Shown: positions 7,380-60,301 of the stretch, piece by piece
Layout: every line of letters begins with the position of its first letter
Numbering within the stretch: the first letter of the stretch is position 1
IMG/VR virus record: IMGVR_UViG_3300009709_000020
Span: 1 to 64,000 of that record
Length of the DNA: 64,000 bases
From: a virus
Reading direction: 5' to 3' (one strand)
Program-made: the position numbers and the translations under genes
The notes under the pieces: model-generated
Databases searched by the model: none
Told to the model about the DNA's origin: nothing
What the model saw: the letters and a program-made list of their open reading frames with translations, nothing else

Positions 7380-9113
7380 TTACTTTGGGTAATTTAATTG
7401 CATTTCGAAATTAATATTTCCGCAATCATGAATTCTATCATACCCGGCAACTTGCATATTCTCCCATCCGGATAACTCTTCACTAAACCCAAGATCAATC
7501 AACATGTATGGCATGTGATTATACCTATTTGATCTAAATTTATAATTTTCTACATACCAACAGTTGGGTTCACTTATTGAAATTTCTTTGAATCCTAACG
7601 TCCTGTATAAATTCCCATCACTCCAACGTCGATCGGCAGAAGTTACTATTCTGTTTGGTTGGACTTTTCTGATAAAATGCTGCAATAATTTTCCAGCACC
7701 TCCTACTATTCGATCACCATTTGTTGCATATCTAATCAATTCATGCGTTGGGTTATCTGATGTAGATTTTTTATTATACCCTGATCTTTCTAATGAAAAC
7801 GTCATTACTGCAACTAACTTGTCCTTGTCATACAGACCTAATTTAGTCGATGCTTCAGCATATCCTTGAAGATGGAATGTTTCTAAAAATATCTTTGCAT
7901 CTTCTCTTGATATATCATGCACTAAAAGGTTTTTTGCATATAACGGGATACTCTGGTTTTTATTGAACATATGTTTTAAACGAGAGTGTACTATATCTTG
8001 CTGATAAAGCCATTCATCTGAAAAAATAGTAACTAATTGATATCCCAATTCTTTCATTTTATTATGTTTTGTAATATGATATGACCGCTTTTTTCCAGAT
8101 GATAATTCACTATGCCAATATAACCCGCAATATTCTATTGCGAGTTTTTCTTCCGGGAATACCATGTCTATTTCAAACGGATTGATTAATCTCTTGTCAG
8201 ATTGATATCCTATGACGCCCAAAGATGTTACAAAATCATACACCTTTTGTTCTTCTTTACTAACCCAGCTAGGAATTCTAGGATTACATTTATAACAATT
8301 TATTCCCGCTGAATGAATAAAAGATTTTGGAATTATTTCATCACATGTATTGCATTTGAAAATGTATTCATGTGCATCTTTTTGTCTAATTCCGTAATAA
8401 TTTTCAAATGGTGTCAATAACGTAAATCCATATTCTCTTTCGACAAATGAACTAAATCTATCATAGCCCATGCGCAAATGTTCGCCGTGTGTACTTCGTT
8501 TTCTTAATGCAACTGCTGATTTCTCTCTATTTTCTGGTAACACCAATACGTTATCTACTCCATACCTATTTCGAACTGTATCTATAATTTGTTCATTAAC
8601 TCCTGGTATATGCCTAGCATTGGTAACTTCTGTGCCATACCTTTCCCGTAATGTTTCGATTATGTTTTGTGTGATACCTTTCGACTTTTCCAAATCATTG
8701 TATAATTCTTTATGCTTTTGTTTCGCATACACTGTTTGTCCGGTATTAGATACTCCGTACACAGCAAGATTAGTCTGTTCTCGTTTTTTATTTTCTTCAT
8801 CAATTTCTTGACGTGTCCGGGAAGCTTTTTTTTCTGAAACCTTTTTACTAACTGATGCATTTGCACATTGACAAACACCTGCTTTTCCACAAAATCTATA
8901 ACCCATTTTGATATCACCAAATTTCAATTCATTGCCGTTGTGGCACAAATTTGATTTTTGCGTAATAGCTGAATAAATTTTTTCAGGAAAAATCTTGTCA
9001 TCTGCAACTGATGAATTTCGAATAACCCAATTATACAGTTCCGAATTATTTTTAATAATTTTTGCATAATGTTTTGGTTTTTCAGATATTAGTTTTTCAA
9101 TCAATTCTTTCAT
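7380..9113 (-). CDS. Hef-like free-standing endonuclease (PD-(D/E)XK/Vsr-like) with C-terminal GNAT/Mom-like domain
   Basis: T-x(3-4)-YG repeats, CxxC pairs, EIDMVFPEEKLAIEYCGLYWH, then HLQG, ELIRYA, GGAGKLL, ADRRWSDGNLYRTLGF, DCG. Confidence 0.7.
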   Translation of the reverse strand: MKELIEKLISEKPKHYAKIIKNNSELYNWVIRNSSVADDKIFPEKIYSAITQKSNLCHNGNELKFGDIKMGYRFCGKAGVCQCANASVSKKVSEKKASRTRQEIDEENKKREQTNLAVYGVSNTGQTVYAKQKHKELYNDLEKSKGITQNIIETLRERYGTEVTNARHIPGVNEQIIDTVRNRYGVDNVLVLPENREKSAVALRKRSTHGEHLRMGYDRFSSFVEREYGFTLLTPFENYYGIRQKDAHEYIFKCNTCDEIIPKSFIHSAGINCYKCNPRIPSWVSKEEQKVYDFVTSLGVIGYQSDKRLINPFEIDMVFPEEKLAIEYCGLYWHSELSSGKKRSYHITKHNKMKELGYQLVTIFSDEWLYQQDIVHSRLKHMFNKNQSIPLYAKNLLVHDISREDAKIFLETFHLQGYAEASTKLGLYDKDKLVAVMTFSLERSGYNKKSTSDNPTHELIRYATNGDRIVGGAGKLLQHFIRKVQPNRIVTSADRRWSDGNLYRTLGFKEISISEPNCWYVENYKFRSNRYNHMPYMLIDLGFSEELSGWENMQVAGYDRIHDCGNINFEMQLNYPK

Positions 9114-12333: not shown

Positions 12334-13212
12334 TTATTTGCGTTTTGGTGCCACTTTCTTTGAAGTCACTGTTGGATTACGCAATCTACGTGATTCTGCA
12401 ATGGGGCTCTTGGTGTTTTGACCATCGTCACCGTGCTTTGGCTTAGGAGCAGCACTTAGGTCTTGTGATTTTTTACCTGGAGCATTCTTGAATTGTCCTG
12501 CACCCTTGAGGTCTTTTGTGCTTGGAGCTGTACGACCTTTTTCATCAGTTGAACCGAAATTTACTGGCTTTGAGCCCATTCCTGCTTTACCTGAATTTGC
12601 TGCGACTGGGCTTTTCTTTTGCACGCCGTCATCACCGTGTGTTACCGATACTTTTTGTAATTGCACAGCTTCTGCTAATTCTTCCGAATCCTCTTCTGAT
12701 TCTTCTTCGAAATCGCCGTCATCATCTGAAAATTCTTCTTCTGAATGATCTTCAAAATCACCTTCATCGTCTGATCCAAAGTCATCGCCATCATCATCTT
12801 CGGCATTGCCGCCCATGATTTCTTCAAATTCTCTCATCAGTTGGTCTAGTTTGTCTTCGATGCGAATTACTGAATCTTCTAGTTCTTCTTCGCCTACTTC
12901 TTCATCACCGAAATCATTGTCTAAATCGTATTCTGCATCGGTATCAAAATCATCACCGAAATGATCTTCATCACCGAATTCTTCTTCTGAATCTTCGTAT
13001 TCGTCACCTTCGTCGCCTTCATAACCTGATTCTTCGGCGTCGATTTCATCAATGAGATCGCCTACTTGGCCGCCCATTTCTTCTTCTGCCATGATAGATT
13101 CAAAAATACCACGGGATTTTTCAATAACGATTTCGTGGAAAAGTGCATTTGCAGCAGCGTGATCTTCATTGATCACTAAATTCATAAGTTTTTCGTATTT
13201 CTTAATGTCCAT
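12334..13212 (-). CDS. Highly acidic prohead core-like protein
   Basis: D/E-rich low complexity, duplicated HGDDGxxxKSP(V/I)A motif, LAE/IAE sites, located between portal and protease. Confidence 0.65.
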   Translation of the reverse strand: MDIKKYEKLMNLVINEDHAAANALFHEIVIEKSRGIFESIMAEEEMGGQVGDLIDEIDAEESGYEGDEGDEYEDSEEEFGDEDHFGDDFDTDAEYDLDNDFGDEEVGEEELEDSVIRIEDKLDQLMREFEEIMGGNAEDDDGDDFGSDDEGDFEDHSEEEFSDDDGDFEEESEEDSEELAEAVQLQKVSVTHGDDGVQKKSPVAANSGKAGMGSKPVNFGSTDEKGRTAPSTKDLKGAGQFKNAPGKKSQDLSAAPKPKHGDDGQNTKSPIAESRRLRNPTVTSKKVAPKRK

Positions 13213-13322
13213 AAAAATTCTCCTAATAAGCTAATGGCTTTGTAGTAATACTTATAACCATCAGGAGAAATTGCTGTTTTAAGGCGTTATTTATTCAATT
13301 TTTAGTAATTAATTGGAGAGAA

Positions 13323-13562
13323 TTAAAATACTCCTGGCGCTGCACCTGCATCGCCTTCAGGTTGTGCACCATATTGAATGCGAACTTTATCCAAATACAA
13401 TTTATTTTCATATGCCCTAACATCCATCATTCGTCTTAATTTACGAATTTGCTGAAGAGTTAATTTGGTTTTTCTGGATGCCTTATACACAGGTTTACTG
13501 TTGTCATCAGACAGGTCCTGTAATCCGGAGATAGCTGGTGCAAAAAGTTCATTTAATAGCAT
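13323..13562 (-). CDS. Small head-module hypothetical protein
   Basis: 79 aa, MLLNELF start, TAAATA 5 nt upstream of ATG. Confidence 0.7.
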   Translation of the reverse strand: MLLNELFAPAISGLQDLSDDNSKPVYKASRKTKLTLQQIRKLRRMMDVRAYENKLYLDKVRIQYGAQPEGDAGAAPGVF

Positions 13563-13570
13563 AAATCTAT

Positions 13571-13936
13571 TTAATACCCATTTTTAAATTTGCACTTATC
13601 AAGTATTTCGTTTGTGACATATTTGCACGGAATAACTAATTTATTTTCACTTGCTGCCTTGGCGAGCCTATGTAATCCATCCAATACTACTAATTGACTT
13701 CTATTGTCTTCTACCAACCATGTCACTAGTATAGGAATGGTAGTATCGGCATTTTCAATACGGGTAGTTTCATTATATGGATCATCGAATTCGAATATCC
13801 ACACAAGTTGGTCTACCGGCACTTCATTATCTTCTATTTTGTCTACCAACCTAAACAATTTATTCAGGTTATATTTTTTACCATTGTGCGTAAAAATAGA
13901 TTCAGGTTCTTCTTGGTATACTTCGAATATTTTCAT
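13571..13936 (-). CDS. ParB/Srx-like N-terminal domain protein
   Basis: PILV...VVLDGLHRLAKA; likely true start MKIFEV at 13936, just after the portal stop (track start 14005 overlaps portal). Confidence 0.75.
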   Translation of the reverse strand: MKIFEVYQEEPESIFTHNGKKYNLNKLFRLVDKIEDNEVPVDQLVWIFEFDDPYNETTRIENADTTIPILVTWLVEDNRSQLVVLDGLHRLAKAASENKLVIPCKYVTNEILDKCKFKNGY

Positions 13937-13937
13937 G

Positions 13938-15710
13938 TTATATCTGCATCGGGCTTCCTGCAGCGCCTGCGGCGCCGACATCTCCTCCGGCATCAGGGGA
14001 TCCAACCGGACCTGCTATTTCAGGGGCCGCTTCTGTATCAGCAGACATATCTTCAATTTCCCCTGCTGTATCCATATCAGATGCGAAATCGCCCGAAGAA
14101 ATACCAATATTTCTTAAATCAGAGCCTTGCGGATCAGCAGTAACCTTATCTTTATTTTCTTCTTCCCACAGTTTTTCATTGCGTTTAATTTCTTCTTCTG
14201 ACATACCCATAAATCTTTCGAGTGCAAAACGCTTTGAAATATAAGGCAGTGCTTCCATAGTAGTAAATGTTCCTACTCTGCTTGAATCAAGTTCAGCTTG
14301 TCTGTATGAGGCAAAATTCTGAGGAGGATTGAAAGTAAGGTTAAACATATTGGTGTCAATGTTGAATCCTCTCCAGCGTAAGAATAGTTTAAATTCTTGA
14401 TCAAATGTCCTACCAACATAGTTTTGCAATCTAGTGCAGTATTGGTTGAACCGGAATTCCTGAATCATTGCAGTTCCCATTCTACCATCTGACATATTTA
14501 CCTGACTATCTTCTGGTCCAGTGGGAAGATAGGAAGAAGGGACCATTAAACCTCTAGCAAGTTTATTGTCAAAATACAATAGATCGTTTACTTCTCCTAA
14601 ATTACTACCGCCTGCCAACATCTCTACTGTTGAACCCCTGCCGTCCGCACTCACAGGGAAATAATAATCTTCGTTAGTTGATAAACTATTGTATGTTGCA
14701 TCAACAGGAGATCCTTGGCCTCCATTGTACGAAGGCATTCTTCTTTGGTGAACTTCGTTTTTTATTCGTTCGATGTATGACATTGCCATATGACTAGGCA
14801 TGTTACCGACATCAATTTTAAATACTCTTCGTTCAGGTGCTCTTGCAATGCGATAAATTAAAATAGCATCTTCTAACAATGACTTTTGTTTATATGTAAT
14901 AAACAATGGATCCAAAACAGAAACACCAAATGGCCAATAATTATCAAGTCCTTCAGTAAGTGATACGTGTACCACGTGTTTAGCATCAATTGCTGCTTCA
15001 CTTTGTCCAATAGTAAATCTTGAACCGGATGAACTATATGATGCTGAAGGGGCGGTATACATTGTATTTGTTCCGCCTCCAGTGCCTCCCATACCAGTAG
15101 CAGGATTAGTTGCTAAATCAGTCGTTGTTTTTTGTGCAGCAGATAGATTTTGTAAATTGATATTGATATCTTTGATTACGTACTGTTCTGGTTTCTTGCC
15201 TTCTGATTCATTGACAATTACTTTTATAACTTTAACCATGTCAATCCAAAACAATTTAAATGTTTCTGGATCACGAATGAATACCTGATCACCATATACC
15301 AATGTATTTCTAAAAATTTTAAATATTCTGGATTCAAATTCGTTTAATTTACACCATTGTTGCAATTGTTTTACTAATAATTCTACTTCATGTGGTGTAG
15401 GATCATCTTTAAATTCAAATTGAAATGGTGTCATATTATGTTCATTGCGTTGCGTAGAAAATTCAGATATGATATCAAGACAAGATGAAATACTTGGATC
15501 CATTTTCATGACATCCCATTGATTATATCTATCTGCTCTATTAGGATGGCCGACGTATACCTCTGGTAATCGTGCCATATAATTTCTGTATCCAAAATCA
15601 TTGGTATTATAATTATTTTCCGAATTATTCCATGCACCTGAATTGGAATTGAACCCTGATATAGGACTGGATGTGCCTGATCTATTTAAAAATTTTCTAG
15701 AATGAACCAT
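13938..15710 (-). CDS. gp20: Portal protein, gp20-like
   Basis: LLEDAILIYRIARAPERRVFKIDVGNMP, EDYYFP, GGSNLGEVNDLLYF. Confidence 0.97.
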   Translation of the reverse strand: MVHSRKFLNRSGTSSPISGFNSNSGAWNNSENNYNTNDFGYRNYMARLPEVYVGHPNRADRYNQWDVMKMDPSISSCLDIISEFSTQRNEHNMTPFQFEFKDDPTPHEVELLVKQLQQWCKLNEFESRIFKIFRNTLVYGDQVFIRDPETFKLFWIDMVKVIKVIVNESEGKKPEQYVIKDININLQNLSAAQKTTTDLATNPATGMGGTGGGTNTMYTAPSASYSSSGSRFTIGQSEAAIDAKHVVHVSLTEGLDNYWPFGVSVLDPLFITYKQKSLLEDAILIYRIARAPERRVFKIDVGNMPSHMAMSYIERIKNEVHQRRMPSYNGGQGSPVDATYNSLSTNEDYYFPVSADGRGSTVEMLAGGSNLGEVNDLLYFDNKLARGLMVPSSYLPTGPEDSQVNMSDGRMGTAMIQEFRFNQYCTRLQNYVGRTFDQEFKLFLRWRGFNIDTNMFNLTFNPPQNFASYRQAELDSSRVGTFTTMEALPYISKRFALERFMGMSEEEIKRNEKLWEEENKDKVTADPQGSDLRNIGISSGDFASDMDTAGEIEDMSADTEAAPEIAGPVGSPDAGGDVGAAGAAGSPMQI

Positions 15711-19229: not shown

Positions 19230-20114
19230 ATGGAAAATAACCCACTACGTCAATACTTTCGCAGACCAGCAGTTTATTTAAAACTGCCTTCAGGTGGTAA
19301 AGAATACCAATCATCAGTTCTTGTTCTCCCTGATTCAGGAGAATTTCCTGTATATCCGATGACGGCAATTGATGAAATTACTGCACGAACCCCTGATGCA
19401 TTGTTTAATGGTGTCGCCGTAGTTGATCTAATCAAGAGTTGTGTGCCAGATATCAAAGATCCATGGGGAATTAATTCAAATGATTTGGATTCAATTCTTA
19501 TTGCAATTCGAGCGGCTTCCGGCAGCGATGCATTCGAATTAGAATCAGAATGCAGAGAATGCAAGGAAAAAACCTCATACAACATTAATCTTGCCGGCAT
19601 TTTAAGCACGTTAAGGCCTGCAGATTATTCACAAGAACTTGCAATCCGTGATCTGAAAATCAAATTTAAACCACTGACCTACAAAGAAATGAATGAAGGT
19701 GCATTAGGTCAGTTTGATATTCAAAAAACAATGTCTGCATTGTTGTCTGCTCCTATACAACAAAACTATAGTTTTGACCCTAATAATCCACAGCCCGCAC
19801 AAGATGATCCTGAACTAGTTAAGCAACGTGAAAAACTAATTCATGATGCATTGGAAAAAACAACTCATTTAACTATGGAATTGCTTGCAAACACAGTTGA
19901 CTACATTAAAACTCCACAAGCATTAGTATCAGAAAATGAATTCATTCTTGATTTTCTAAAAAATTGTGATAGAGAAACATATAATGCGATCAGAGAATAT
20001 AACGCCAAACTAAAAAGCGAAACTGATCTAAAACCACTGGATGTAAAATGTCCACATTGCAATCATGAATACCAACAAAGCTTTACATTGAACCCAACGG
20101 ATTTTTTCGGGTAA
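19230..20114 (+). CDS. gp26-like baseplate hub/tail assembly protein
   Basis: LKLPSGG, PMTAIDE, DLDSILIAIR.AS, two CxxC motifs, ends DFFG. Confidence 0.75.
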   Translation: MENNPLRQYFRRPAVYLKLPSGGKEYQSSVLVLPDSGEFPVYPMTAIDEITARTPDALFNGVAVVDLIKSCVPDIKDPWGINSNDLDSILIAIRAASGSDAFELESECRECKEKTSYNINLAGILSTLRPADYSQELAIRDLKIKFKPLTYKEMNEGALGQFDIQKTMSALLSAPIQQNYSFDPNNPQPAQDDPELVKQREKLIHDALEKTTHLTMELLANTVDYIKTPQALVSENEFILDFLKNCDRETYNAIREYNAKLKSETDLKPLDVKCPHCNHEYQQSFTLNPTDFFG

Positions 20115-20335
20115 GACTTCTTATTTCGTCTCACGATGAAATTAAGAAGTTAATTGACGATTATGAAAATGAAGTAGAAGGCATTAAAAAAAATGCTATG
20201 ACCATGGCAAGATACATGCGAGGCTCAATGAGTTATAATGATGTGCTGAACATGAGTGCCAAAGAACGCGCAAGCATTAATGAAGTATTCGAGGAAATAG
20301 TAGAATTGCACAAAAAAGGGATCGATATTCTTTAA
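20108..20335 (+). CDS. gp51-like C-terminal module in the -1 frame, probably reached by ribosomal frameshift
   Basis: 75 open codons RVRLLISSHDEIKKLIDDYENE...MSYNDVLNMSAKER...DIL*; no ATG/GTG/TTG until 20198; slippery T TTT TTC at 20102-20108. Confidence 0.7.
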   Translation, partial: RVRLLISSHDEIKKLIDDYENEVEGIKKNAMTMARYMRGSMSYNDVLNMSAKERASINEVFEEIVELHKKGIDIL

Positions 20336-20345
20336 TCGATCCCTT
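20316..20345. terminator. Hairpin between convergent genes
   Basis: AAGGGATCGAT / ATCGATCCCTT. Confidence 0.65.
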
Positions 20346-20697
20346 AATTAAATCGTAACTTGTATTCCATTTGAATTTTTTCATCATGGAATTTTACACT
20401 ATGCTTAAATTCAATATCTTCGTATTTTATGATCAAGCAATGAAGATGTTTAACGCAGAAATTAAATTCTGCTATGTCATCGAATCTACGACCAAATAGG
20501 TAATAGATTTTTCTGCCATCTGCTGCAATAATGGCAGGACCATTTGGATTATGGCGAAATCCGTCAACAAACCAAGATTGTCTTCCATTTTCTAATACCA
20601 ACGCAGGCCCATCGAGGTTGTGTAATTGATTTTTATCATTTCGAAACTGTTTTTCAACAGGGGCCATCACTTCGAATACTTCTAATTTAGGTGCCAT
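20344..20697 (-). CDS. GPA-repeat (MORN-like) family protein
   Basis: LHNLDGPA and RHNPNGPA repeats; C-terminal EYKLRF. Confidence 0.8.
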   Translation of the reverse strand: MAPKLEVFEVMAPVEKQFRNDKNQLHNLDGPALVLENGRQSWFVDGFRHNPNGPAIIAADGRKIYYLFGRRFDDIAEFNFCVKHLHCLIIKYEDIEFKHSVKFHDEKIQMEYKLRFN

Positions 20698-20705: not shown

Positions 20706-21044
20706 TTATAAAAATCGTAAATTATATTCTGCTTGAATTTTAGGATCAGTGAAATACCAGATTGGATTTCCAAAATTAACATCATAATCAATACAATAAT
20801 CTAAATGGTTGACGATGAATGCATATTCCTCTTGTTTGCGAACAGTGCAATTGTTCAAATAATAAATTTCGCGCCCCATGTGAATCGTCGCAGGGCCATT
20901 CTCTCTGTGTCGTTTTCCGTGCATAAACCAATGTTCTCCGTACGGAGTTATTACAGCCGGCAAATCATCATGAGAATGTAGATTTCCATCCTCATCTAAC
21001 AAATGGTAATATCCATTACACTTATCTATATACCGATGATCCAT
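20706..21044 (-). CDS. GPA-repeat (MORN-like) family protein
   Basis: LHSHDDLPA and RHRENGPA repeats; C-terminal EYNLRF; TTGACA-N17-TATATA ending 6 nt before ATG. Confidence 0.8.
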   Translation of the reverse strand: MDHRYIDKCNGYYHLLDEDGNLHSHDDLPAVITPYGEHWFMHGKRHRENGPATIHMGREIYYLNNCTVRKQEEYAFIVNHLDYCIDYDVNFGNPIWYFTDPKIQAEYNLRFL

Positions 21045-21084
21045 AATTTCTATATACGATAATCATGAAAATATGTCAACAAGA

Positions 21085-22136
21085 AATCCGGATATAACTC
21101 CGTCCTACGTAAAGAAGAATAATATGAATTTCAACAATGAATCGAACAGGTCTAACGACCACGTTCAAAAACACTAATTTTTCGCTCGTTTCACATCGCT
21201 CAAATTATATTGTTTTTTTATTGTTTTGTAAGTTATGAATTTTAATTACTTAATTCCGGTTTCTTTTAAGCGGAGCTAATGCGTAGCGTTCTTCTGCATG
21301 ATTCCGAGGAGTGCCATGGTAGTGCTTGTCACAGCACTACCAAAAACTTTTAAAGGAAACATTCCTTGTCGGCTCTATGCTATGAGTTCACCGTCAACAT
21401 AGCTAATTTGTGCTTGTTGACGACACCGGTCTCGTTGTAAGCTATGACGTGGTTAGTAGTGGAAAAGAGGTTAAGTCAGGCTTCACGATCTCCGCATATC
21501 TATTTTTTCGTTCCGCAGTGCTGTTTAACTGCCGGTGCACAGAGACCCCTTAACATTTTCCGAGACGCATGTTCTGCCCTTCACTCATAGACTACGGGCA
21601 GACTCATTGAGGGATCGCAATACCAGGATCCGAGAGCCCTCTCGGTGTTCCTAGGCGTCACTATCAACAGAACCGCCCACGATCGACACTTTAACAATCA
21701 TTTAACATCTCATCATAAGTGATTGCAATCAATATAAAATCAACAGATAGTATATCTCGATATGTGGTTTATGAATTCTAAAATTCGTGTTAATAGGTAA
21801 TGAATATAAGATGTATACCCCTATTAAAACGATAATAGAATTAATTTCTCCTTTACTATTTCTACCCAATCCGAAATTTATTTTTATAAAAAATATTTTT
21901 TTAATTTTGGAATGGGTAAATTTAACAAAGGGTCCGATAGCTTGTTTACAGGTTTATCATACGTGGATATCCTGTAAACCGCCTAGCTTCCCTAGAATCT
22001 GATCGCATTCATCAGTGGTGCAATCTCAAAGGGGGTCGAGGAACCACGACCAAACACCGATAGCATTCAATAAAGTGGGCTACAATGCACCCTTATTACA
22101 ATATTGACTGTAAAAGAGAAAAGAAATTTCCCCTAA
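21085..22136 (-). ncRNA. Large structured non-coding element, copy 1 (unknown family)
   Basis: No credible ORF; ordered blocks shared with 59003-60295; compensatory stem changes; TTGCAT-N17-TATAAT at 22171-22143; boundaries approximate and strand inferred from the promoter. Confidence 0.75.
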
Positions 22137-22142
22137 GACGTA

Positions 22143-22171
22143 ATTATATTTAATATAGGAAAATAATGCAA
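22143..22171 (-). promoter_or_regulatory. sigma70-type promoter (with overlapping TAAATA) heading non-coding copy 1
   Basis: -35 TTGCAT 22166-22171, 17-nt spacer, -10 TATAAT 22143-22148. Confidence 0.65.
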
Positions 22172-22207
22172 TAAAATTTTGTAATAATATTGCGCAGGAA
22201 TTTAGCC

Positions 22208-22239
22208 AAAAAAATAACCCAGAAAATTTCTGGGTTATT
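22208..22239 (-). terminator. Intrinsic terminator insulating the non-coding element
   Basis: AATAACCCAGAA/TTCTGGGTTATT stem with U-tract on minus. Confidence 0.75.
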
Positions 22240-22311
22240 ATAGTTGTTTGAAGCTATAAAACTATTTAGCAGATAATGTGTTGTACTTTAAACATATCTA
22301 ACCTCCTTTAA

Positions 22312-22611
22312 TTACATAATATCATTAAATTCGTCAGCAGACATCCGCAGATAGTCCAGTTCAGTATAACCTAGACGATCAATGCCATCGCCGCCGCCGA
22401 CATAGTTACCATCAGAATCGAATGCGGAATATCCATAGCTGTCGAAACCTTCTGAATCATAATCCGCAAAGTGCTTGCGTTCATTATATTCTCCGGAAGT
22501 TTCACGATTGTAATCTTCAGGGATTTCCTTGTCTGCATTGTACCTAAACTCGGACCAATCACGAGCAGCGAGAGCGCGGGTGATAGATGGGCTATACTTA
22601 CCTCGACTCAT
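22312..22611 (-). CDS. Hypothetical early protein with DxxG(F/Y) repeats
   Basis: YDSEGFDSYGY, FDSDGNY, IDRLGY; AAGGA SD; promoter TTGACA-N17-TAGAAA at 22675-22647. Confidence 0.75.
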   Translation of the reverse strand: MSRGKYSPSITRALAARDWSEFRYNADKEIPEDYNRETSGEYNERKHFADYDSEGFDSYGYSAFDSDGNYVGGGDGIDRLGYTELDYLRMSADEFNDIM

Positions 22612-22686: not shown

Positions 22687-23763
22687 TTATTTTTTCTTTT
22701 TGCAATTATCAAAATGATAACGAATCATGTTTCCGCCACCGCCAGTAAAATCGCAATGAGGACATGTTCTTACTATTTTTTTCTTGCCTTTGTGACCTAA
22801 ACCAATTTTTGCTGCATGATCAGCAGTTTTTGGTTTACCTTTTGTTGCTTTGCTGATGTTGTCTTTCCAGGTTTGTATTTCGTTTTCATCCATTTTATAA
22901 AAACACGGTTTTCCGTACATCCCATTTTCTTCACCGCGTTTTATTCTTCTTTCATCTGTTTTCCATTTTTCTTTTTGTTCAACGGTGTGAGTTTTTCCAT
23001 AAAAACTTGCATTTTCTCCTCTTGGGGGAGGATTATTTTCAATTGCTAATCGTTGATTTTCTCTGATTTCTTTTGCACGTTCTTCCCCAAAAGATTCTTC
23101 TAATGTTTTACCTTTAAAAGGAGATTCCATTCCATAAAAAGGATTATTTTCTCCTGCTAAATTATTTTTTATAAATTCAGTTCTTTGGTCTTCTGTCATG
23201 CACCGATATAGATAATGATTTTTACCTCGATAATAATTATCGAGATAATCTTGGTGTTCTTCTTCGGTTAATAAATGTTTCCAATATGGTCCCGTTTCAT
23301 AACGTTTTTTTAACGTGTCGCTACGTTTCATTCTATTTTCTTCTGACATTTCATCCGGAACAATAAATTTTACTCCAGGTATACATTTATTGTAAAATTT
23401 TTTTTCGCCGTTATCAAGTTTTATTCGTAAAACGTCTTCGGATATTTGTCTGTGTACTTCTGCATATGATAATGATGCTTTTGTTTTATGCAAGGATTCA
23501 ATAATGAATTGATAATTTTCTATACCGTGTTGTTTAATCGCATCATTCAGATGGGTCGAAGATCCGGTATATGTTTTCCAATCAGATTCTAATGTTTTTT
23601 TGGACCTATTTTTTTTGCCCGCGACGACTTTCCTGCGCACAAAAAAGAATTGTTTTTTTCCTATATATTCTTTTCCGGTGTGAAGTTCTTTTATTCGATA
23701 AATAAATCCAAACCATTCCTTAATATCAAACTCTGCAAAAAATTCCCAATGACCTAAATCCAT
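22687..23763 (-). CDS. GIY-YIG (Seg-like) endonuclease with NUMOD3-type repeats
   Basis: GFIYRI...EYIGKK, YTGSS, repeated GENxxxYG motifs, C-terminal CPHC..HFDNC. Confidence 0.85.
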   Translation of the reverse strand: MDLGHWEFFAEFDIKEWFGFIYRIKELHTGKEYIGKKQFFFVRRKVVAGKKNRSKKTLESDWKTYTGSSTHLNDAIKQHGIENYQFIIESLHKTKASLSYAEVHRQISEDVLRIKLDNGEKKFYNKCIPGVKFIVPDEMSEENRMKRSDTLKKRYETGPYWKHLLTEEEHQDYLDNYYRGKNHYLYRCMTEDQRTEFIKNNLAGENNPFYGMESPFKGKTLEESFGEERAKEIRENQRLAIENNPPPRGENASFYGKTHTVEQKEKWKTDERRIKRGEENGMYGKPCFYKMDENEIQTWKDNISKATKGKPKTADHAAKIGLGHKGKKKIVRTCPHCDFTGGGGNMIRYHFDNCKKKK

Positions 23764-25100: not shown

Positions 25101-27182
25101 TTAATTTTTTTCTTCTTCCATTTGATATGATGTAAATCCACTTGATTTGATCACTTTCAGCACAGATGAAACTCGACTGGTTAGTTCATCTTTGTGACTA
25201 ATCAACCAAATAGATTTGTTGCGATTTCTGTTCATTTCTTTGAGAACCTTCAGAGAATTTTCAACACTTGCACCATCAGTACCATTATCCAATAATTCAT
25301 CAACGCACATTAAGTTGATCGGATAATACAAACTTTCCCAGACATCTCTAAATGCCCAAGACAAAGAGAGAATTACTCGTCCCATTTCACCTCGACTGAA
25401 GTTCCAATAATCCATTTCTCTGCCCAGTTCAGTGATTTCAACAGTCAAATCATTCTTAAATTCTACCTCATGAGGAAGTCCCATTTGTTCCAAATAATAT
25501 GACAAACGCGAATTCAAATATGTCAGGTTTTGTTCAATGATTTTTTTCCGAATAAATGAATCTTTATTAGTTAATAAATCATGTAAAAATTTTAAATGAT
25601 CACCGTGCTTAACAAGTTTATTAATGTTTTCAAAATCAATCACTTGGATTGCTTTTTCTTCCATATCAACAATTTGTTCACCGTATGGATCAATTTCTTT
25701 CGTCATTTTATCAATTTGTGAAATAATTGTGTTTAGCGTTGATCGATGTTCGATTGCTTCACTTTCAGTTGAATAATGTGTCACTGGTTTATTCATTGGT
25801 TCACGAACACTACCTAATTCAGCCATTTGATGCTCAAATGGATTAGTTTCTTTTTGTAAATTGGATAAACTATGCTGTAATTTGGTCAGTTTTTCTTTAT
25901 GCGCCAAAGCTTCTATCTCAGTTTTGTAATATGGTTCTGGCATTTCATTTAGTACAAAAAGACTTTGTGTATTTTTTGCCAATTCAGAAATAGTGAGTGC
26001 TAAATCAGCTTGTGTGTGTTCATATGTTTTTTGTTTTGCTTCTAATACAGATTGTTGAGTTTCATCATGGAATTCTTGTCCACATGCATAACATTTATGA
26101 TCATGTAATGTAGCGATTTCTATTGCCAATTTTTCTAATAGTTGGGTATCTCTATTTCTTGTTTTTTCTAAACGTGCAATATTTTGTTGAATCAAGTCTA
26201 ATTCTTTTTTCTTTGCTTGGTAATTTGCAATCGATTTATGATTTTCAAGCTCCTGTTGAATATCTACTTCAGTAAGAGACTTAATTATTTTTTCAAGTTT
26301 AGAAATCTCATTTGAATTGTTTTCTGCCCACGATGTGTGGGATCCAAAAACTCCCAAATAAGTATTATACCTAGCTAAATCATTTTCATACACTTTCAAC
26401 GAGGCATGGTTTAACAACTCTTGCTCAATATCCACTGCATTTAATTCTTCATAGAATGAAGTCAATTTCTGTAAATCTTCGTTGTGTTTATTTTGCCAAA
26501 GCTTCTGTCTTCTTTTCAATGCGTCAATTTGTTCTTTGACCCTTTTGTTGGATTCTTCAGTCGCCTTAATTCTAAATTCTTCTTGTTGCAAAGAATCTTT
26601 ATTGGTGCGCATTTGTTCTTTTACTAGTTCCGCTTTTTCTGAAAGCATGGTGATACCTAGAAGTTGTTCGATGATAAGACGTTGATCATTTGATCCTAAT
26701 GCAAGAAACGGTGTTGTGTAGGTGTTTAAAATAACAAGATGTTTGAACATTTCGTGTGACATACCGACAATGGATTCAATCATAGATTGAGTCTGCTTGT
26801 TTTCTCCTTGTGCAGCATCTTCTTTTGTTTCTTGTAGCGCATTGTTTACATAAAAACGTAGAAGGTTTGGCTTACGCCCTCGTTCAATTTTATAATCAAT
26901 GCCTTTAACAGAAAATTCAAGACTAACCAACATATTTTTTCCATTGGTTCGGTTAATCAGATTATCTTTTCTGATATTATTGATTGGTGAACCATACAAA
27001 GCATAAGAAATTGCTTGTAAGCCCGTTGTTTTTCCTGTACCATTTCTTACTTGTGAATCCACAATGTCTGTATTTTCACCTAGAATTAAGGTGAGTGCCT
27101 CATTATTGAGGTTGATTGTTTGTGAATTTTGGCCCACGGAAAGGAAGTTTTTAATAATTACATTTTTGATGATTAATGACAT
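25101..27182 (-). CDS. gp46: Recombination endonuclease ATPase subunit, gp46/Rad50-like
   Basis: NFLS, NGTGKTT, zinc hook CYACG, FSRGE, LMCVDE, ISH. Confidence 0.95.
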   Translation of the reverse strand: MSLIIKNVIIKNFLSVGQNSQTINLNNEALTLILGENTDIVDSQVRNGTGKTTGLQAISYALYGSPINNIRKDNLINRTNGKNMLVSLEFSVKGIDYKIERGRKPNLLRFYVNNALQETKEDAAQGENKQTQSMIESIVGMSHEMFKHLVILNTYTTPFLALGSNDQRLIIEQLLGITMLSEKAELVKEQMRTNKDSLQQEEFRIKATEESNKRVKEQIDALKRRQKLWQNKHNEDLQKLTSFYEELNAVDIEQELLNHASLKVYENDLARYNTYLGVFGSHTSWAENNSNEISKLEKIIKSLTEVDIQQELENHKSIANYQAKKKELDLIQQNIARLEKTRNRDTQLLEKLAIEIATLHDHKCYACGQEFHDETQQSVLEAKQKTYEHTQADLALTISELAKNTQSLFVLNEMPEPYYKTEIEALAHKEKLTKLQHSLSNLQKETNPFEHQMAELGSVREPMNKPVTHYSTESEAIEHRSTLNTIISQIDKMTKEIDPYGEQIVDMEEKAIQVIDFENINKLVKHGDHLKFLHDLLTNKDSFIRKKIIEQNLTYLNSRLSYYLEQMGLPHEVEFKNDLTVEITELGREMDYWNFSRGEMGRVILSLSWAFRDVWESLYYPINLMCVDELLDNGTDGASVENSLKVLKEMNRNRNKSIWLISHKDELTSRVSSVLKVIKSSGFTSYQMEEEKN

Positions 27183-39285: not shown

Positions 39286-42200
39286 ATGGCTACTATTCGT
39301 ACATTATCATTTTTACCAGAAATTTATAGAACAAAGAAAAACGCAGAAATATTGTCAGGAACACTTGATAATATTGTTAGTGAACCAACATATTCTAGAA
39401 TACAGGGATATATTGGAAGTAAATTTGGAAACGGGATTGATGCGTCTGCTTCTTATATACCTGAGGTTAATAAAGAACGCACTGATTACCAATTGACACC
39501 GTCGGTAATCTCACTAGACGATGATACGAAAAATGTATCTGATTTTATTACTTATCCGGGTATGGTTAACGAACTTACCAATAGGGGAAGTATTACTAAC
39601 AACAATGCAAGTTTGTTTGAAGGCAACACTTCTTCTTGGGATTCTTTTACTGATCTAGACAAACTAGTAAATTATCATCAATATTATTGGTTGCCTGATG
39701 GATTGCCATCAGTTGATATTACTGGAAATTCTGCTACATCAGTTTTAAACTACCAAGTAACATCCGATGTATCAACATACAGCATTGAAGAAATTAATGC
39801 AACCTCTACAAATTTTAATCCCAGTATTACACTGGTGAGAGGCAAAACATATACTTTTGCAGTAAATCAAAATTCGCAATTTTGGATTCAAACTGAACCG
39901 GGCCTATTAGGTAAATCCACTTTAAATCCAGCAATTTCAACTAGAGAAATTTACGGTGTTACGAATAATGGATCTGAATCCGGCACCATTACATTTACAG
40001 TTCCCTATGAAAATGCACAAGAAACATTTGAATTTTCTACAAGATATCTTGTAGATATTACGTCAGACAAATTGGCAACAAGTATTATAGGAAATCATTT
40101 GTATGATTTGGTTGACCCAGTAACTGGAAATATTATTCCGGGAGTCAACAATATCGATGGGATAACTGACCTGGACGGAAAAATAATATTTTTCCCTGAT
40201 ACTGAGTTACCATCTTCAGCTGGCAGTCACACCTACACTGATGGTGTTGTTGTTTATCAAATGCCGTATTTTTCCTCAACTGATTTTGGATATTTTTACA
40301 AAATTGTATACGAAGAAGATCCTAATAATACAGGAAATCCAATTCTAACACTACAGCGACTTGAAGCAATTCCCTTCAATGCAAGCATTGTTGCAAAATA
40401 TGGTTTAACAAATATAAATGTTCCTTATTATCAGGTATCTAGTTTGGTATTTGCCAAGGTTCCTAATCTAACCGCAAGACTTACTAAATTGTACTACCAA
40501 GATTCCGAAGTTTCTACTAAAACAGGAATTTTTAATATCGTAGATGATACTGCGTCTGTAATAATTGATATAAATGATATTTTGGGTAAAAAAACTTACA
40601 CATCTCCCAACAATATTGTATTCACTAATGGTCTTAAAATAAAATTTGACAGTTATGTACATCCGTCATCATATGCAAACATCGAATATTATGTTGATGG
40701 GGTGGGATCATCCATTAATTTAATTCCGGTATTGAATCTGGTATGTCCTGAAAGTTTTTCAGAATCTGAATACAACACATTTGATAATTTTCCTTTCGAT
40801 GCTGATACATTTGATGTATCAATGTACATTCCCGTAGAACCAGATTATATTACAATTGCGAGGTCAGCAATTAATGAAAATGCTTGGTCACGCAGCAATA
40901 GGTGGTTTCACACTGATGTAATTTCCGCTGCAGGGACATACAATAATTCGGATTATTTGACAACTTACGCAACGTCCAACGCGAAAGCAAAAAGACCAAT
41001 CGTTGAGTTTTATCCTAATCTAAAAATGTTCAATTCAGGCACAACTTCTGTTCCGTTTGTAGATTTCTATGATTCAACAACCACAGATGCATTTAGCAAT
41101 GTGGCAGGAAAACTTAGTTATTATGCAGACATCGATGCATATGTACCAGTATCAACGATTGCAGGAACTGTCACTTCTCCGGTTAATTCATCTTCATTAG
41201 TTGCAGGACAAGCATACCAAATTTCATCTCTCGGTAACACAAATTGGAATTTAGTAGTAGGCACATCAAATATCATTTATTATGTCGGTGATACAATTGT
41301 ATGCAAAAATGCAGTATCTGGTACTGGTACTGCCACATTTTTAGCAACCTCTACCACAGCAACATTGAATTCAAATAATGCTACTGGTACATTTTCTGCT
41401 GGGATGTTTGTAGCAACAGAAGATGCAACGTTATTGCCAGCTGGTTCATATATATTCTCTGCTACTACTGATGATTCAGGCATTACTACACTTGTAATTC
41501 ATTGGGATGATCCGCAAAATATTTTAGGTGGAAATGCCGCCTTAATCGCAACAAATAATTCAATGGATAATTACCAATTGTTTTCTGGTGCAAGAATAAT
41601 TTTCTCAAATGATGTCGATGAAACTGTACGTAATAATATCTATACTGTTAATATTACGCAAGTAGAAGAAAATGAAGCACCTGTAATTGTATTATCTTTG
41701 GCTGATCAAGGTGAACCTATATTAGGTACACAAACTGTCATCCTACGAGGAGAAAGTTTCAAAGGCAAATCAATTTATTTTGACGGTATTTCTTGGAATC
41801 TTGCCCAACAAAAAATAACAATTAATCAGCCACCGCTATTTGACGTGTTGGATAAAAACGAAAACTCATTATCAGATGCATCAATATATGCAAGTAGTTC
41901 TTTTACAGGGACAAAACTATTCAGCTATTCTATTGGTACTGGAGCACCTGATTCTGTACTAGGATTCCCGATATCATACAGTTCAACTAACAACATAGGT
42001 GATATCGCATTTACAGTTGATTTCAATTCTGATATTTTCAATTATGTAAATGGTGCAAATGTCGTTACTGAAAATATTAATACTGGATATGTGTATCAAT
42101 ATTCTACTCCATCTAGCTTTAATAGATTATTAGGTTGGACTGCTTCTGTTGCGCCTGTTCCACAGTATCAAATTTTTAATTTTGTGTATGATTCGTCAAC

Positions 42201-45200
42201 TCCTGTATTAAAATGTGACATAGAAAAAAGCACAAATACTATTTGGCCATCAATAAAAGTTTTTTATAACAATGCATATGTCAATAATGACAAATATTCG
42301 GTTATAACCGATGCTAATTCAACTGAAGTAACATTGATTACTCCACCCAGTGACGGAACACCAGTTGAAGTACTGCTGTTAAGTGATCAGGTATCTGCTA
42401 ATGGTTATTACGATATTCCAACCAATTTAAATAACAATCCATTGAATAATTCTTTGGAAAAAGTTAATTTAGATGAAATTAGGCTACAATTTAATGACAT
42501 TTTTATTAATAATGGAACAATAACAGGTTCCATTAACGGAGCAAATTCATACCGTGACTCAGGAAATCCAATTGGTTACGGTACAAAACTAATACAAAAT
42601 CAATGCCCTGTTGTCACACCTGGTCTTTTCTTGCGTGATTCTTCGTTGAATCTACAGGAAGCATTGTTGTTTAACAGTAGAGAATATGTAAAATATAAAC
42701 AATTATTGACATTTACTGTTCAAAATTCAAATTATGATGTGACATATTCTCCTGCAGATATATTGGACGATGCAATCGAGCAAATTTCACTAGCAAGGAC
42801 TGAATCAAATTCTTTCTATTGGACTGATATGTTACCGTCAAGAGTCCCTTATATTTCGAAAACGTATACTTTCAGGAACAATACAAATAATGTAGCACTT
42901 TCATTATCGAAAATTTACGATTTTTCTGTTGCAAGTTATGATTCTGTGCTAGTGTACCTAATTCGAGTTGTAAATGGTAAGAAAAATGTAATCCAACTAC
43001 AAAAAAATGTGGACTATACCGTTAGTTCAACAGCCACAAACGTAATAATTACAAAACAACTATTGCAAAATGATATTATCACTGTTAATGAATATAATCA
43101 GACCTATGCATCTTACGTTCCTCATACACCTAGCAAATTAGGTTTGTATCCGCTATTTGTGCCTGAAATCATACTGGATAACAATCTAGTAACACCTACT
43201 TATTTCATCAAAGGACATGATGGTTCATATACGAAATTATATGGATCATATGACGCCAATACCGAATCGTTGAATGACTTTAGAGACATTGCGTTATTTG
43301 AATTTGAAAACAGAATATACAACAATACTAAATTGTCATCAACTGTTCCCGTCATTGATCTAACCGAAATTAAACCCGGTTATTTTAGAGATGTACCGAC
43401 ATTTAGTGATTGGTTGTCAGTATATACCGCTAATTTCATGAATTGGGCCGGACAAAATAGAATTGATTATACCTCTCATTATTTTGACAAAAATAATCCA
43501 TTCACCTTTAATTACCGAAATTCATCAGAAAAACTTACAAACACTGCAAACAACATTGGTAATTGGGCGGGATTGTATCAATATTTCTATGATACATTTA
43601 CCCCACATTTAACACCATGGGAAATGCTAGGATTTTCTATTAAACCATCATGGTGGGATGCACGCTATGGTGCTGCACCATACACCAGCGGTAATACAAT
43701 ATTATGGAATGACTTGCAACTAGGTTTTGTATGGAATGACGGTGATTCCTACACTAAAGAAAAATATGCCAGAGATCGTTTAGCTGAAATAATTCCTGTG
43801 GATGCCGCAGGCAATCTATTGGATCCTATGACAGTTCTAGTAGGAAATTATGATGCCAATATTTTTCAAGCTGATTGGATTATAGGTGATACAGGACCAG
43901 CAGAATTATCATATCGCAGAAGTTCCTCGTATCCATTTGACATTATCAACGCATATTCTTTACTGAAACCCGCCAAGTTCTACAATCTAGCGATAGATTT
44001 GGATGTGTACCAATATAATACAGAATTTGGTCAATGGTTAACAAATGGTAGAAATTCATTGACCCTCTCAGACATCAAAGTATATGGTTCTGGTATTGCT
44101 AAAACAAGTTATTTAAATTGGATAGTAGATTATCAAAAACAGCACGGCATTGATGCTAGTTCTTATATTTCCAATAAGCTATCCAACGTAGATGTTAGAT
44201 TGACTTACCGTTTGGCTGGATTCAGTGATCAAACATTGTTGAATTTTTCATTGGAAAAAGTTTCACCCAATGACAACAATACTGCACTAAAAATTCCAAA
44301 CGAAAACTATAACATTATTTTGTATAATAATCAACCACATGACCAATTAACAATGTCAAGTGTGATCATTCAAAAAACTGGAAATAATTGGGCCGTATAC
44401 GGAAATTCACAGTCAAGTGCATATTTTGTAATTGATTCTCCTGTAATTAATGGAAAAACAATTGCAGTTGAATATGGTTCTGCAACAGTTAAAGTTGCAC
44501 AAGATTATAGCCAAACAAAACAATATATCCCATATGGTACTATTTTTTATAGTACACAGGAAATTGCGCAATTTATTAAATCATATTCATCGTCATTGGA
44601 AACAAAAGGTGTAATTCTAGACCAAACATTCAATGGTTCACCAATTAATTGGGACACGATGATTCAAGAATTTTTATATTGGTCACAAACCGGATGGGAA
44701 TCAGGCAGTGCAATTACGTTAAATCCTGCATCAACCACGTTAAAAATAACCCCTCCGATGGGTATTGTGCAACCATTAACAAATTCTGCTGATAATTTCA
44801 TTTTAAATCAAAATTTATATCCAATCAAATCCAAAGATTTGGATGTATATCGTCAGGACAATAGTTTCACTGTATCTACATTGAATCCCGGTGATTCAAT
44901 GTCATACACTCAATTGGATTATGCGTCACTTGAACACGGAATTGTGTTTGACAATACAACTATGTTCAATGATGTTATTTACGATCTAACAACAGGTCTA
45001 CGTCAATACAGGATAATGTTGTCCGGAAGAAAAACTGCAGAATGGAACGGAACATTAACTACCAATGGATTCTTCCTAAGCCAAGATAATATTGTTGCCT
45101 GGTCAACAGGGACGAAATATTATGCAGGCAATATTGTGACATACAAAAACAAATATTGGGCCGCCCAACAAACTGTCGAGGCTGCGTCAAATTTTGATAC

Positions 45201-48200
45201 TTCGGTATGGAAAATAGTAAAAACTGAATCAATTCGCTATGGCATGTTACCGAATTCAGCAAACAGGGCGTATGAAAGCACACTATTTTATGATGTAGAT
45301 AGATCAAATCTAGCATCAGATAATGACCTATTGTCAATGTCATTGATTGGTTACAGACCTAGGGATTACCTAGCCCTAGCTGATTTAACAACTGCTGCAC
45401 AACTCAATGTATACAAAAATTTTATCAAAAATAAAGGTACTCCCAATTCACTTGAAGTATTCAATACGGTCAATCTTGCCCAAGGAGAACTAAAATACGA
45501 CATACACGAAAATTGGGCAATAAAAACAAGCCAATTCGGTGATAAAAACTCAGGTAAATACATCGAAATGCAATTGGACGAGACACAAATTACTGGAAAT
45601 GCGTCTATTATTTCTGTAACAAATGGTGATGTTCCTGCAGGAACATCACAAATAGTACCAATTAACAAGCTGTATAATTACAATTTCAATGTACTATCAC
45701 CTAATATATTGCCATTAATGGAAAGTCAAGATCAACAAACTGCAGGATATGTTTCATTTGATGATGTAAATGTTTTTTCTTATAACTTTAGTGGATTAGA
45801 TAATGCCACTGATTCTACCGGAAACCTGTTGGATATTAATAATCTATACACGGGCGATTACATTTGGGTTGCAAATTTTAATGGTTCTTGGGGAGTGTAC
45901 TCTACTGTTATCCAAGGAACCATTACATCAATCACTTATGGTTCATCATACAGCACAGTAACTTTTTCTGATCCACATGAATTGTCAGTAAATGACCCAA
46001 TTGCAGTCATTCAAACAACCGATGACATTAATGGTTATTATCAGGTAAATACGGTTGTTGATAGCAAAACAATTACTATTCCTTATGCAAATGCATTAAA
46101 TTCAGGAAAAACAATTGAATTATTGGGATTTGTGCTAAAACTAGAAAACAAAAGATATTCTACTATTTCATCATTACCTGATATAGTTAATGTGTTTGAC
46201 AAAAATGATATTTATTGGATCGATGAAGATTCAAATGGCAGATGGGCTGTATATCAAAAAACGTCAAACAAATATTCTTTGGTGGATACTATTTCTACTT
46301 TAAGTGGCAATAACAAAGCAATTGTTTCTGAAGAATTAGGTATACTTATTACCAATGGAAATAATGTAGATCGTTATTCAATGGTTGGTACTGACTACCT
46401 GTTAACAGAAACCATTAATGGTGGCGCTGGCTTTGGATCATCTATTGCAACCTCAGATAGAACGATTTTCATTGCTAACTCAATTACTCAACAAATTAAT
46501 GTGTATTATAACAATGATACCGTGTTGTCATCAAATTCTGTTCTAATCAATACAATTGATTTAGCGTGCGACAAAATTTGGATTTCCGAAGATGGAAATT
46601 ATTTGTATGCATCTGACACCTCAACCAATTCTATCAATGTTATCAAAAAAATAAATTATGATATTTCTGCTGAATTCATGACTGCCGGAAGAGCATATAT
46701 TATCCAAACTCTCGGAGATTCAGATTGGGTTTCTGTAGGTGCAATTGAAAATTCACCGAATGTGGTTTTTGTTGCCTCAGGTCCAATAACACCGTCGACT
46801 GGCGTTGCCAAAGAAATATCGTATGAATTAGGCTTTACTATTTCAGGAAGTGAAACTGGATTTGGTACTGATTTTGCCTCGTCATCAACTGGTCATACTA
46901 TTGTTGTCGGATCACCTGACAAAATTATTAATTCATTGCAAGGAGTCGGCGGCGCCTACATTTATGTACAGGATGCACAAACCACAAAAACTTCATACCA
47001 AAACAATAACAATCCTGAACAAATCGGAATAGTATTCTCGAACAATGCCGTAATAGCTAATGCTTTTACAACTGTTACAGGTTCAAATATATATTTTAGC
47101 GTGCCTGCAGGATTAAAAATAAATGATCGTGTAGTTTTCGGTGGAGCATATATCGAAAATTATGGTTTCAACACCTCTGCGGTTTATTACGTGCAATCAG
47201 TATCTCCTACATATATCACGGTGAAATCTACAATTTCTTCAAATACTCCTGTGTTATTTGATTCAATAACTGGTATATCAGGTCAATGTTATATTCAAGA
47301 TAACACGGTTGATGTATTTGTTAATGGAACGGTTGTTACCACTGACAATTATTTTATCAAAAATTCAACTCTGACATATATTGGAAATTTTTCGGCAGGC
47401 GATATTATTGCAATTGTGTTCTCAAGCTACACATTGACACAAACCTTGGCTGGTAACAATACAACTAGAATTGATTCTCATTATGGATCATCTGTTACTA
47501 TTGATCGATCAGGAAATGAAATTTTTGTAAGTTCTCCGTATGAAGTTTCTACTTCTTCTGAAGGATCGGTTTATCGATACACAAATACTGCAGGCATTTC
47601 AGGAACTATCCTAGGATCCAATATTTGTAATGTAACGATTTCCGGTACTGTAACTATCAACGGTTATCCAATTGTAATTCCAATTGGTAATTCTGTTGTT
47701 GCTTCATCAGTAATCAATAATTCAAAAATACCAAACATAGTCGCGTCATCCGTTGACGGAAAAGTAATGATTTCTGTAATCAATGATAGTGAAACTATTG
47801 CACTTCAAAAAATTATTATTAATGCACCGGAATCATTGTTAACTCAACTTGGAATTTTGTTGAGAACAAACACACAAGTAATCAGGTCCTCAGATACCTA
47901 TGCAAAAACCGGATTCGGCTATTCATTGGCGATAACGGATAATGAATTATTCGTGTCAAGTATTAATTCTGTTTGTGAATCACAAGTTACTTTTGACACG
48001 GTGTATAAAAATGACCACACCAATACTGTGTTTGATAATCAAACTACGTTGTTCTATGATGTGTCACCTGCAACTGGATTGGTAGAAACTTTCAATCTTA
48101 TTGAGGGTCCTAATTATACAAGACAATACGTATACGGTCAGTCATTGTCAGTGGATGACGATGATATTAATTTTGGAAACAACCTTTCAATTGCCGGCAA

Positions 48201-58967: not shown

Positions 58968-59002
58968 ATTGGCATTCAATGTGAAATAATTTTTACAGGC
59001 AT

Positions 59003-60295: not shown

Positions 60296-60301
60296 AAATT
60301 A

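Follow-up and report, generated by a model that had tools for sequence, protein, structure and literature searches.

A covarying, clade-conserved element in two gene-free gaps of a phage genome fragment: a candidate for an undescribed large structured RNA

The element and its genome

Two gene-free gaps in a viral genome fragment carry diverged copies of one element, whose helices are kept by compensatory changes, whose locus is syntenic in related jumbo phages and whose enlarged copies share a promoter pattern at equivalent positions. We interpret both gaps as genes for a single undescribed, highly structured non-coding RNA that acts as a folded molecule, a reading that we hold with no more than moderate confidence. 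Its transcription from the minus strand early in infection, its autonomous folding and its action as folded RNA are inferred without any expression data.

The stretch of DNA analysed here (the window) is the opening 64 kb of a viral record that totals 102.8 kb and has a CheckV completeness of 30%. The sequencing runs listed as containing its DNA were moss metagenomes, with no RNA run among them. Its genes include those for a T4-type portal, baseplate proteins and a Rad50/gp46-like protein, as well as a 5756-aa reading frame. By portal protein, the closest cultured phages (44%–50% identity) were the jumbo phages PA5oct, Atu_ph07 and XaC1 and the Asteriusvirus and Eneladusvirus groups, and the portals of uncultured T4-like jumbo phage relatives, with genomes of roughly 350 kb, were 65%–73% identical. 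The 5756-aa frame (39286–56556, plus strand), which is a single open reading frame downstream of baseplate genes, contained segments resembling 400–800-aa proteins of a related contig, G001, with 29%–42% identity. A multi-copy family of 500–600-aa proteins with a weak REase_MTES_1575 match was found in both phage fragments (window: 7380–9113 and 63458–64966, both minus; G001: 12451–14259, 42013–43548 and 47886–49691), and its members may be mobile nuclease genes.

Two homologous gaps and their parts

The gene-free gaps span 21045–22311 and 58968–60345. Neither contained a stop-to-stop frame of > 92 aa or a tRNA gene, and no tRNA gene was found across the 64-kb window. The original prediction had the two gaps share colinear blocks, and blastn of one gap against the other returned four, all on the same strand: 21989–22067 with 60158–60236 (block A; 70 of 79 positions identical, 88.6%, the count given before), 21307–21462 with 59208–59382, 21601–21646 with 59433–59478 (80%) and 21863–21905 with 59659–59700 (84%). 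All of the compensatory stem changes that had been listed between the copies were present in the sequences, and a 100-nt indel in copy 1 (21461–21561) was indeed a closed hairpin, at a site that varies in length family-wide. The ACCGGT block does not form a loop but belongs to a pair of long-range helices nested in each other. No third copy occurred elsewhere in the 102.8-kb record. A reading frame within the element was considered and rejected as non-coding, given a nucleotide identity of 77% against 43% for the amino acids and the absence of the frame from copy 1; a search with its translation as the query returned no new homologue.

A 23-mer scan of viral contigs identified a third enlarged copy on L003, a fragment of a related phage, which brings new compensatory changes to the same stems. 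Two covariance models were built from the three enlarged copies: R1 covers the 82-nt domain of block A, and R2 a core of 141 positions. The parts of copy 1 and its surroundings are as follows, with blocks A to E being the shared blocks of the original prediction.

22143–22171, minus: sigma-70-type promoter, TTG-N20-TATAAT, placed as in copy 2 and L003 with respect to the 3′ domain
22066–22108, minus: promoter-adjacent hairpin, with a closing stem that differs compensatorily among copy 1, copy 2 and L003
21983–22064, minus: domain R1 (block A), made up of an outer helix and two hairpins, one inner and one variable; R1 model 105.9 bits; covariation
21652–21982, minus: lineage-specific expansion between the core domains, where compact relatives have an R2–R1 spacing of 15–60 nt
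21421–21651, minus: core domain R2 (blocks C and part of D); R2 model 135.6 bits; covariation
21392–21422, minus: hairpin H4 (block D stem); covaries in relatives (alignment columns 459–490)
21318–21341, minus: hairpin H1 (block E), 9 bp; near-invariant family-wide (alignment columns 377–404)
21085–21300, minus: tail, with hairpins at 21176–21206, 21144–21166 and 21089–21102
22213–22239, minus: intrinsic terminator, a 12-bp stem followed by a T run, ending the upstream minus-strand gene 22312–22611
21051–21079, minus: promoter-like site (TTGACA, 17 nt, TATATA), putatively serving the downstream minus-strand gene 20706–21044; consensus match only
19230–20114, plus: gp26-like baseplate hub gene (PF12322 in a relative), left synteny anchor
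20117–20317, plus: conserved 75-aa gene, left synteny anchor
25101–27182, minus: gp46/Rad50-like recombination nuclease subunit gene, right synteny anchor

The promoter-adjacent hairpin, which is the first hairpin of a minus-sense RNA, was present in the three enlarged copies and absent from compact relatives. The expansion of copy 1 includes an AT-rich hairpin (21863–21918, block B), and its R2 domain consists of two hairpin arms inside two nested long-range helices, with 21461–21561 as an enlarged variable hairpin. The loop of the tail hairpin at 21176–21206 was kept across the family. We infer that a minus-sense RNA of copy 1 would start near 22136 and end near 21085, although the 3′ end has not been mapped. 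The terminator at 22213–22239 closes the upstream minus-strand gene and thereby insulates copy 1, as had been proposed. From its consensus match, the site at 21051–21079 suggests that a separate transcription unit may begin after copy 1.

Copy 2 has the following parts, and the start of its RNA is inferred to lie near 60295.

60302–60330, minus: sigma-70-type promoter (TTGATT, 17 nt, TATAAT)
60239–60288, minus: promoter-proximal hairpin
60152–60233, minus: domain R1; R1 model 103.8 bits
59484–60151, minus: lineage-specific expansion of 668 nt, including an AT-rich hairpin at about 59651–59718
59343–59483, minus: core domain R2; R2 model 158.6 bits
59313–59344, minus: hairpin H4
59219–59244, minus: hairpin H1
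59003–59200, minus: tail, with hairpins at 59102–59125 (family-conserved loop), 59060–59082 and 59006–59018

On the opposite strand, a gene for a 470-aa protein with weak matches to polymerase-beta-type nucleotidyltransferases (60346–61758, plus) begins 16 nt past the copy 2 promoter.

Distribution and synteny in related phages

To place the element in a wider context, 80 contigs of related phages were collected through their portal protein (65%–73% identity), and the 50 largest records were searched. R1 matched 12 of these and R2 matched 19, with R2 E-values of 1e-16 to 1e-22, giving 23 of the 50 when combined. A further model, R3, built from 25 matches, added two members (E = 1e-31 and 1e-35), bringing the total to 25 related contigs with scores of 58–124 bits (E = 1e-16 to 1e-35) and the family to approximately 28 copies in 27 viral records. 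Since models made from the copies described above recovered 25 more loci at such E-values, the similarity goes far beyond chance. The original prediction of two diverged copies in this genome stands, but the element is not confined to it: it is clade-wide and normally single-copy.

No match to R3 was obtained in about 20 unrelated large phage records, and the cultured jumbo phages PA5oct, Atu_ph07, XaC1, Vibrio 2.275.O, Phosso, A4 and BF gave no credible match. The one weak hit, of R2 in Atu_ph07 (16.6 bits), was not reproduced by the improved model R3 and is regarded as chance. Exact and degenerate pattern scans of viral contigs returned only L003 or chance matches, two metagenome scans and a scan of one genome collection yielded no further copy, and blastn against GenBank phages matched neither the large nor the compact form. 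In PA5oct (NC_071039.1, 75666–77856), approximately 2 kb between recombination genes and the hub gene contain only tiny hypothetical frames; this space, unmatched by the models, could harbour a non-coding element that is unrelated or has diverged strongly.

In contigs of the probable source run (X1), the summed depth was ca. 49 over domain R1 (window 21971–22072) and ca. 9 in the flanks, an approximately five-fold difference, and loose contig ends matched L003 and one further variant. The depth excess and the variant ends indicate that the moss sample has more copies than the two records described here.

In the compact relatives, the whole non-coding stretch was ca. 520 nt and spanned the gap between two converging stop codons, with about 15–60 nt from the end of R2 to R1. 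Insertions of 330 nt (copy 1) and 668 nt (copy 2) occupied this R2–R1 junction, where two relatives had inserts of 40–60 nt, and copy 1 was additionally 100 nt larger in the hairpin of variable length. Thus, the 1-kb size in the window results from lineage-specific insertions at two peripheral sites. The G+C content of the core was 41%–51%, compared with 35.5% for the genome, and several unpaired blocks were invariant despite portals that are only 65%–73% identical.

With the element taken as plus, the gene order in relatives was gp26-like hub (PF12322), 75-aa gene, element, convergent PDDEXK_15 nuclease gene and gp46, sometimes with an HNH gene between the last two. The element was always at this locus. 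The complete genomes G011 and G053 each had exactly one copy, in the syntenic place. Neither the element nor the hub gene was found in G021 (95% complete), where the portal gene lies 2.5 kb from the contig end, and we infer that the locus falls off the contig. Given that the hub gene, the 75-aa gene and gp46 surround copy 1 in the window, copy 1 is the syntenic and ancestral copy, and copy 2 is an extra paralog; copy 2 and the L003 copy are additional copies in other genomic contexts.

Compared with relatives, several extra genes have invaded the syntenic region here, among which repeat-protein genes and a SegE-like nuclease gene were inserted around copy 1. The small repeat proteins (ca. 100–117 aa; window: 20344–20697 and 20706–21044, both minus; L003: 3217–3534 and 3589–3897) flank copy 1 and the L003 copy and belong to a family with 542 relatives in viral contigs, several per genome. 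Contigs collected through this family contained no new copy of the element. The 75-aa protein (window 20117–20317, plus; relative contig L239, 848–1075, plus) had no Pfam match. Because its gene is always directly upstream of the element, with a stop codon that often abuts the first tail hairpin, it is a candidate partner.

Covariation and folding

The original prediction inferred a large structured non-coding RNA family from two copies, and the enlarged alignments support it by covariation. Among 24 distinct R2 sequences, 95.8% of 696 cells formed standard pairs, and 18 of the 29 pairs changed on both sides (110 cells), a level reached in none of 500 shuffles. When partners were slid by 1–3 columns as a control, pairing fell to 28%–43%. 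In R1, 92% of cells paired, and double changes occurred in 9 of the 19 pairs. Given that the R1 and R2 alignments were fitted to the model, MAFFT and RNAalifold were applied as an independent check. For 21 compact copies, this approach yielded 56 pairs, 26 of them with double changes, including pairs in three hairpins that lay outside the models: H1, H4 and the first one of the tail. The element thus meets the criterion for a conserved structured RNA that compensatory changes keep its helices above the level of controls, and its covariation is stronger than in many accepted families. A caveat concerns the outer long-range helix: with four of its pairs invariant, this helix rests on one covarying pair and on its nesting.

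Wobble pairs made up only ca. 1% of paired cells on either strand, despite the 110 double changes, which were mostly between transition pairs. This scarcity is unusual for RNA. It could reflect strong selection on short AT-rich helices, or else a constraint that acts on the two strands alike and is imposed by an antisense partner or an RNA–DNA hybrid. It would also fit a structure formed by the DNA itself, extruded or single-stranded, such as a recombination or replication site, since ca. 99% of paired cells are Watson–Crick and wobble is rare on both strands; recombination genes are also adjacent. We consider this very unlikely. Helices closing 60–230 nt are hard to form from duplex DNA, the enlarged copies have dedicated promoters, and the few exceptions are asymmetric (8:1), as expected for one strand read as RNA.

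The transcribed strand

The minus strand is the likelier RNA strand, a conclusion that we hold with reasonable but limited confidence. Promoters of the form TTG-N20-TATAAT had been predicted on the minus strand at equivalent places by both copies and were located at 22143–22171 and 60302–60330. The pattern TTG-N20-TAYAAT is rare: across the two strands of the window there are only five matches, where 4.3 would be expected by chance. Two of the five lie beside copies 1 and 2 at equivalent positions and point into the element. L003 shares this arrangement even though no alignment is possible between its flank and that of copy 1.

The exceptional pairs lean the same way. The original prediction cautioned that some G–T pairs fit the plus strand better, which the larger alignments overturned. 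In 28 real pairs of R2, all non-Watson–Crick cells were of the wobble type, with eight A·C and one G·T on plus. As A·C on plus corresponds to G·U on minus, the R2 exceptions favour minus by 8:1; the corresponding cells of the MAFFT alignment favoured minus by 11 to 4. These counts agree with the minus-strand promoters. The fold of the alignment was somewhat better on minus (−172) than on plus (−153).

The same RNA might nevertheless be read from plus, as the 3′ end of, or a product processed from, the late baseplate-hub operon. The element directly follows plus-strand genes in relatives, copy 2 is flanked by plus-strand genes, a few G·T cells are present, and single-sequence fold energies and z-scores were equal on both strands (−3.5 and −3.4). 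We regard plus-strand reading as unlikely: besides the wobble counts of 8:1 and 11:4, the promoters of all three enlarged copies point the opposite way, copy 1 and L003 are flanked by minus-strand genes, and the hairpin loops and tail are pyrimidine-rich on plus. In the most compact relatives, moreover, the T run of the tail hairpin and the core are only ca. 20–25 nt apart, too close for a plus-strand promoter to fit between them. The tail hairpin and T run of relatives were also considered as a plus-strand terminator; the scan did not call one, the loop of 11–13 nt being too long.

The compact relatives had no conserved sigma-70 promoter on either side of the element, and the RNA there would either form the 3′ portion of the convergent nuclease mRNA or arise from that mRNA by processing. 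This arrangement also fits a cis-acting role, which counts against an independently acting RNA. The element might be a structured 3′ UTR at the convergent junction, stabilising or terminating the early recombination-gene transcript and insulating it from the late operon. The PDDEXK stop codon lies 10–25 nt from R1 in compact relatives, with neither a terminator nor a promoter between, and the element fills the entire space between the converging stop codons. Invariant unpaired blocks and nested long-range helices, however, exceed the needs of a terminator or stabiliser. Copies 1, 2 and L003 lie in three unrelated contexts with a promoter each, and a real terminator separates copy 1 from its upstream gene. 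We therefore consider a purely cis-acting role quite improbable; like DNA-level structure and a decayed intron, it is less likely than an RNA acting through its fold.

Comparison with known RNAs and replication origins

No Rfam 15 family matched anywhere in the window at the gathering score. Searches of both gaps at E up to 10 returned only sub-threshold chance matches, and those of ten compact homologous loci at E up to 1 returned nothing relevant. This check, proposed with the original prediction for GOLLD, ROOL, HEARO and introns and here also covering OLE, RNase P, tmRNA and 6S RNA, thus identified no known family. No description of the element was found in the literature.

A degenerate self-splicing intron, or some other mobile RNA element now without its reading frame, was considered in this light. 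T4-like phages carry group I introns, which are likewise large structured RNAs in T4-like genomes, and the element is multi-copy in this lineage. A gene for a SegE-type GIY-YIG homing nuclease (22687–23763, minus; PF19835, E = 1e-33) adjoins copy 1, which fits such an origin. Unlike group I introns, however, the element interrupts no gene and has no reading frame; no Rfam intron model matched the large form at E up to 10, and none matched the compact form. The flanking frames are complete, unrelated genes rather than halves of one gene, and in relatives the element occurs once, always in the same intergenic place. An intron origin is hence hardly credible.

The main rival to an RNA acting through its fold is the pre-primer of a replication origin. 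In this scenario, a folded transcript made by the host polymerase would form a persistent RNA–DNA hybrid at the A/T-rich tail and prime the leading strand, with extra copies as extra origins. ColE1 RNA II, which is about 550 nt long and structure-dependent, and the R-loop origins of T4 operate in this manner, and the T4 origin oriF adjoins uvsY/25/26. The element resembles ColE1 RNA II and T4 oriF and oriG in its proposed host-polymerase transcript and folded core of ca. 520 nt, close to the length of RNA II. It further resembles these R-loop origins in its A/T-rich tail (T-rich on plus, hence A-rich on minus), its oriF-like neighbourhood beside a gp26-like hub and recombination genes, and the possibility of several copies, with one in relatives and several in this lineage. 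Each enlarged copy has its own early-type promoter, and the near-absence of wobble would fit a constraint from an antisense partner or at the DNA level, of the kind seen where RNA I and RNA II overlap.

Unlike those origins, the element has no known initiation site, antisense RNA or RNase H site. Of the hallmarks of a ColE1-type pre-primer, namely a promoter about 0.5 kb ahead of a DNA start, RNA–DNA hybrid formation and RNase H processing, only the promoter and the length were seen. No clear antisense promoter and no iterons were found, and compact relatives lack a dedicated promoter. A consensus scan detected no plus promoter-like site in the 5′ part of copy 2, and in copy 1 a 9-of-12 plus site lies at 21945–21973, just outside R1. 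The scarcity of wobble on both strands would be consistent with an antisense partner without providing evidence of its existence. In G011, the element sits at a local convergent junction ca. 6.5 kb from the major divergent switch, and the minimum of the cumulative GC skew, which tracks gene orientation and is at best a weak guide here, is a broad plateau at 120–150 kb, with the element at 162 kb. T4 R-loop origins are not known to require an elaborate or conserved RNA fold. A pre-primer is thus possible but improbable.

Phage phi29 prohead RNA offers another comparison, as a phage-encoded structured RNA; the present element likewise lies a few kb from a portal gene. No sequence or model similarity was found, the phi29 RNA is 174 nt long and belongs to a different packaging system, and no use of RNA is known for T4-type packaging.

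GOLLD and ROOL are the closest known things in kind. These large ornate RNAs, often borne by phages or prophages, form RNA-only multimeric cages (PMC12286853). Like them, the element is phage-borne and several hundred nt long, combines many covarying helices with unpaired blocks that are invariant, and has neither a known function nor a partner gene that always accompanies it. It differs in matching neither Rfam model (E up to 10 in the gaps), in occupying a fixed, syntenic locus in the T4-like jumbo clade and in its almost complete lack of wobble pairs; moreover, GOLLD and ROOL are often tRNA-associated, whereas the 64-kb window has no tRNA gene.

Proposed role and significance

Under our preferred reading, an undescribed RNA acting as a folded molecule, the family core of ca. 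520 nt would comprise a two-hairpin tail, the near-invariant 9-bp hairpin, a further hairpin, R2 and R1. R2 would form a junction with two hairpin arms closed by two nested long-range helices, and R1 would combine an outer helix with two hairpins, one inner and one variable. In the present lineage, the RNA would have been duplicated and enlarged by peripheral insertions to ca. 1.05 kb (copy 1) and 1.3 kb (copy 2), and a host-type sigma-70 promoter would have been gained separately by each enlarged copy. That the RNA works through its fold is suggested by its fixed locus and single copy, by the unpaired blocks that do not vary and by the nesting of its long-range helices. We infer that it may serve as a protein-binding scaffold, a self-assembling RNA or a catalyst, rather than by base-pairing with a neighbouring gene. 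Against this reading, there is no observation of a transcript, of its ends or of its strand, neither an activity nor a protein partner can be put forward, and the wobble scarcity would equally fit a both-strand or DNA constraint.

A bolder interpretation, which we offer only tentatively and consider doubtful, is that the element represents a new class of large functional RNA indispensable to the clade, whether catalytic, self-assembling or an origin-defining pre-primer, with wobble-free helices reflecting a both-strand or RNA–DNA-hybrid constraint. Large RNAs with intricate folds are known from bacteria and phages in only a few cases, every one of which has revealed unexpected biology. At about 520 nt, the compact forms are small enough to be practical for structure probing and cryo-EM, the window's enlarged and duplicated copies reveal insertion-tolerant sites, and the near-absence of wobble pairs is a puzzle in its own right. 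The fixed place of the element and its invariant unpaired blocks point to a core function in jumbo phage infection that protein annotation has missed.
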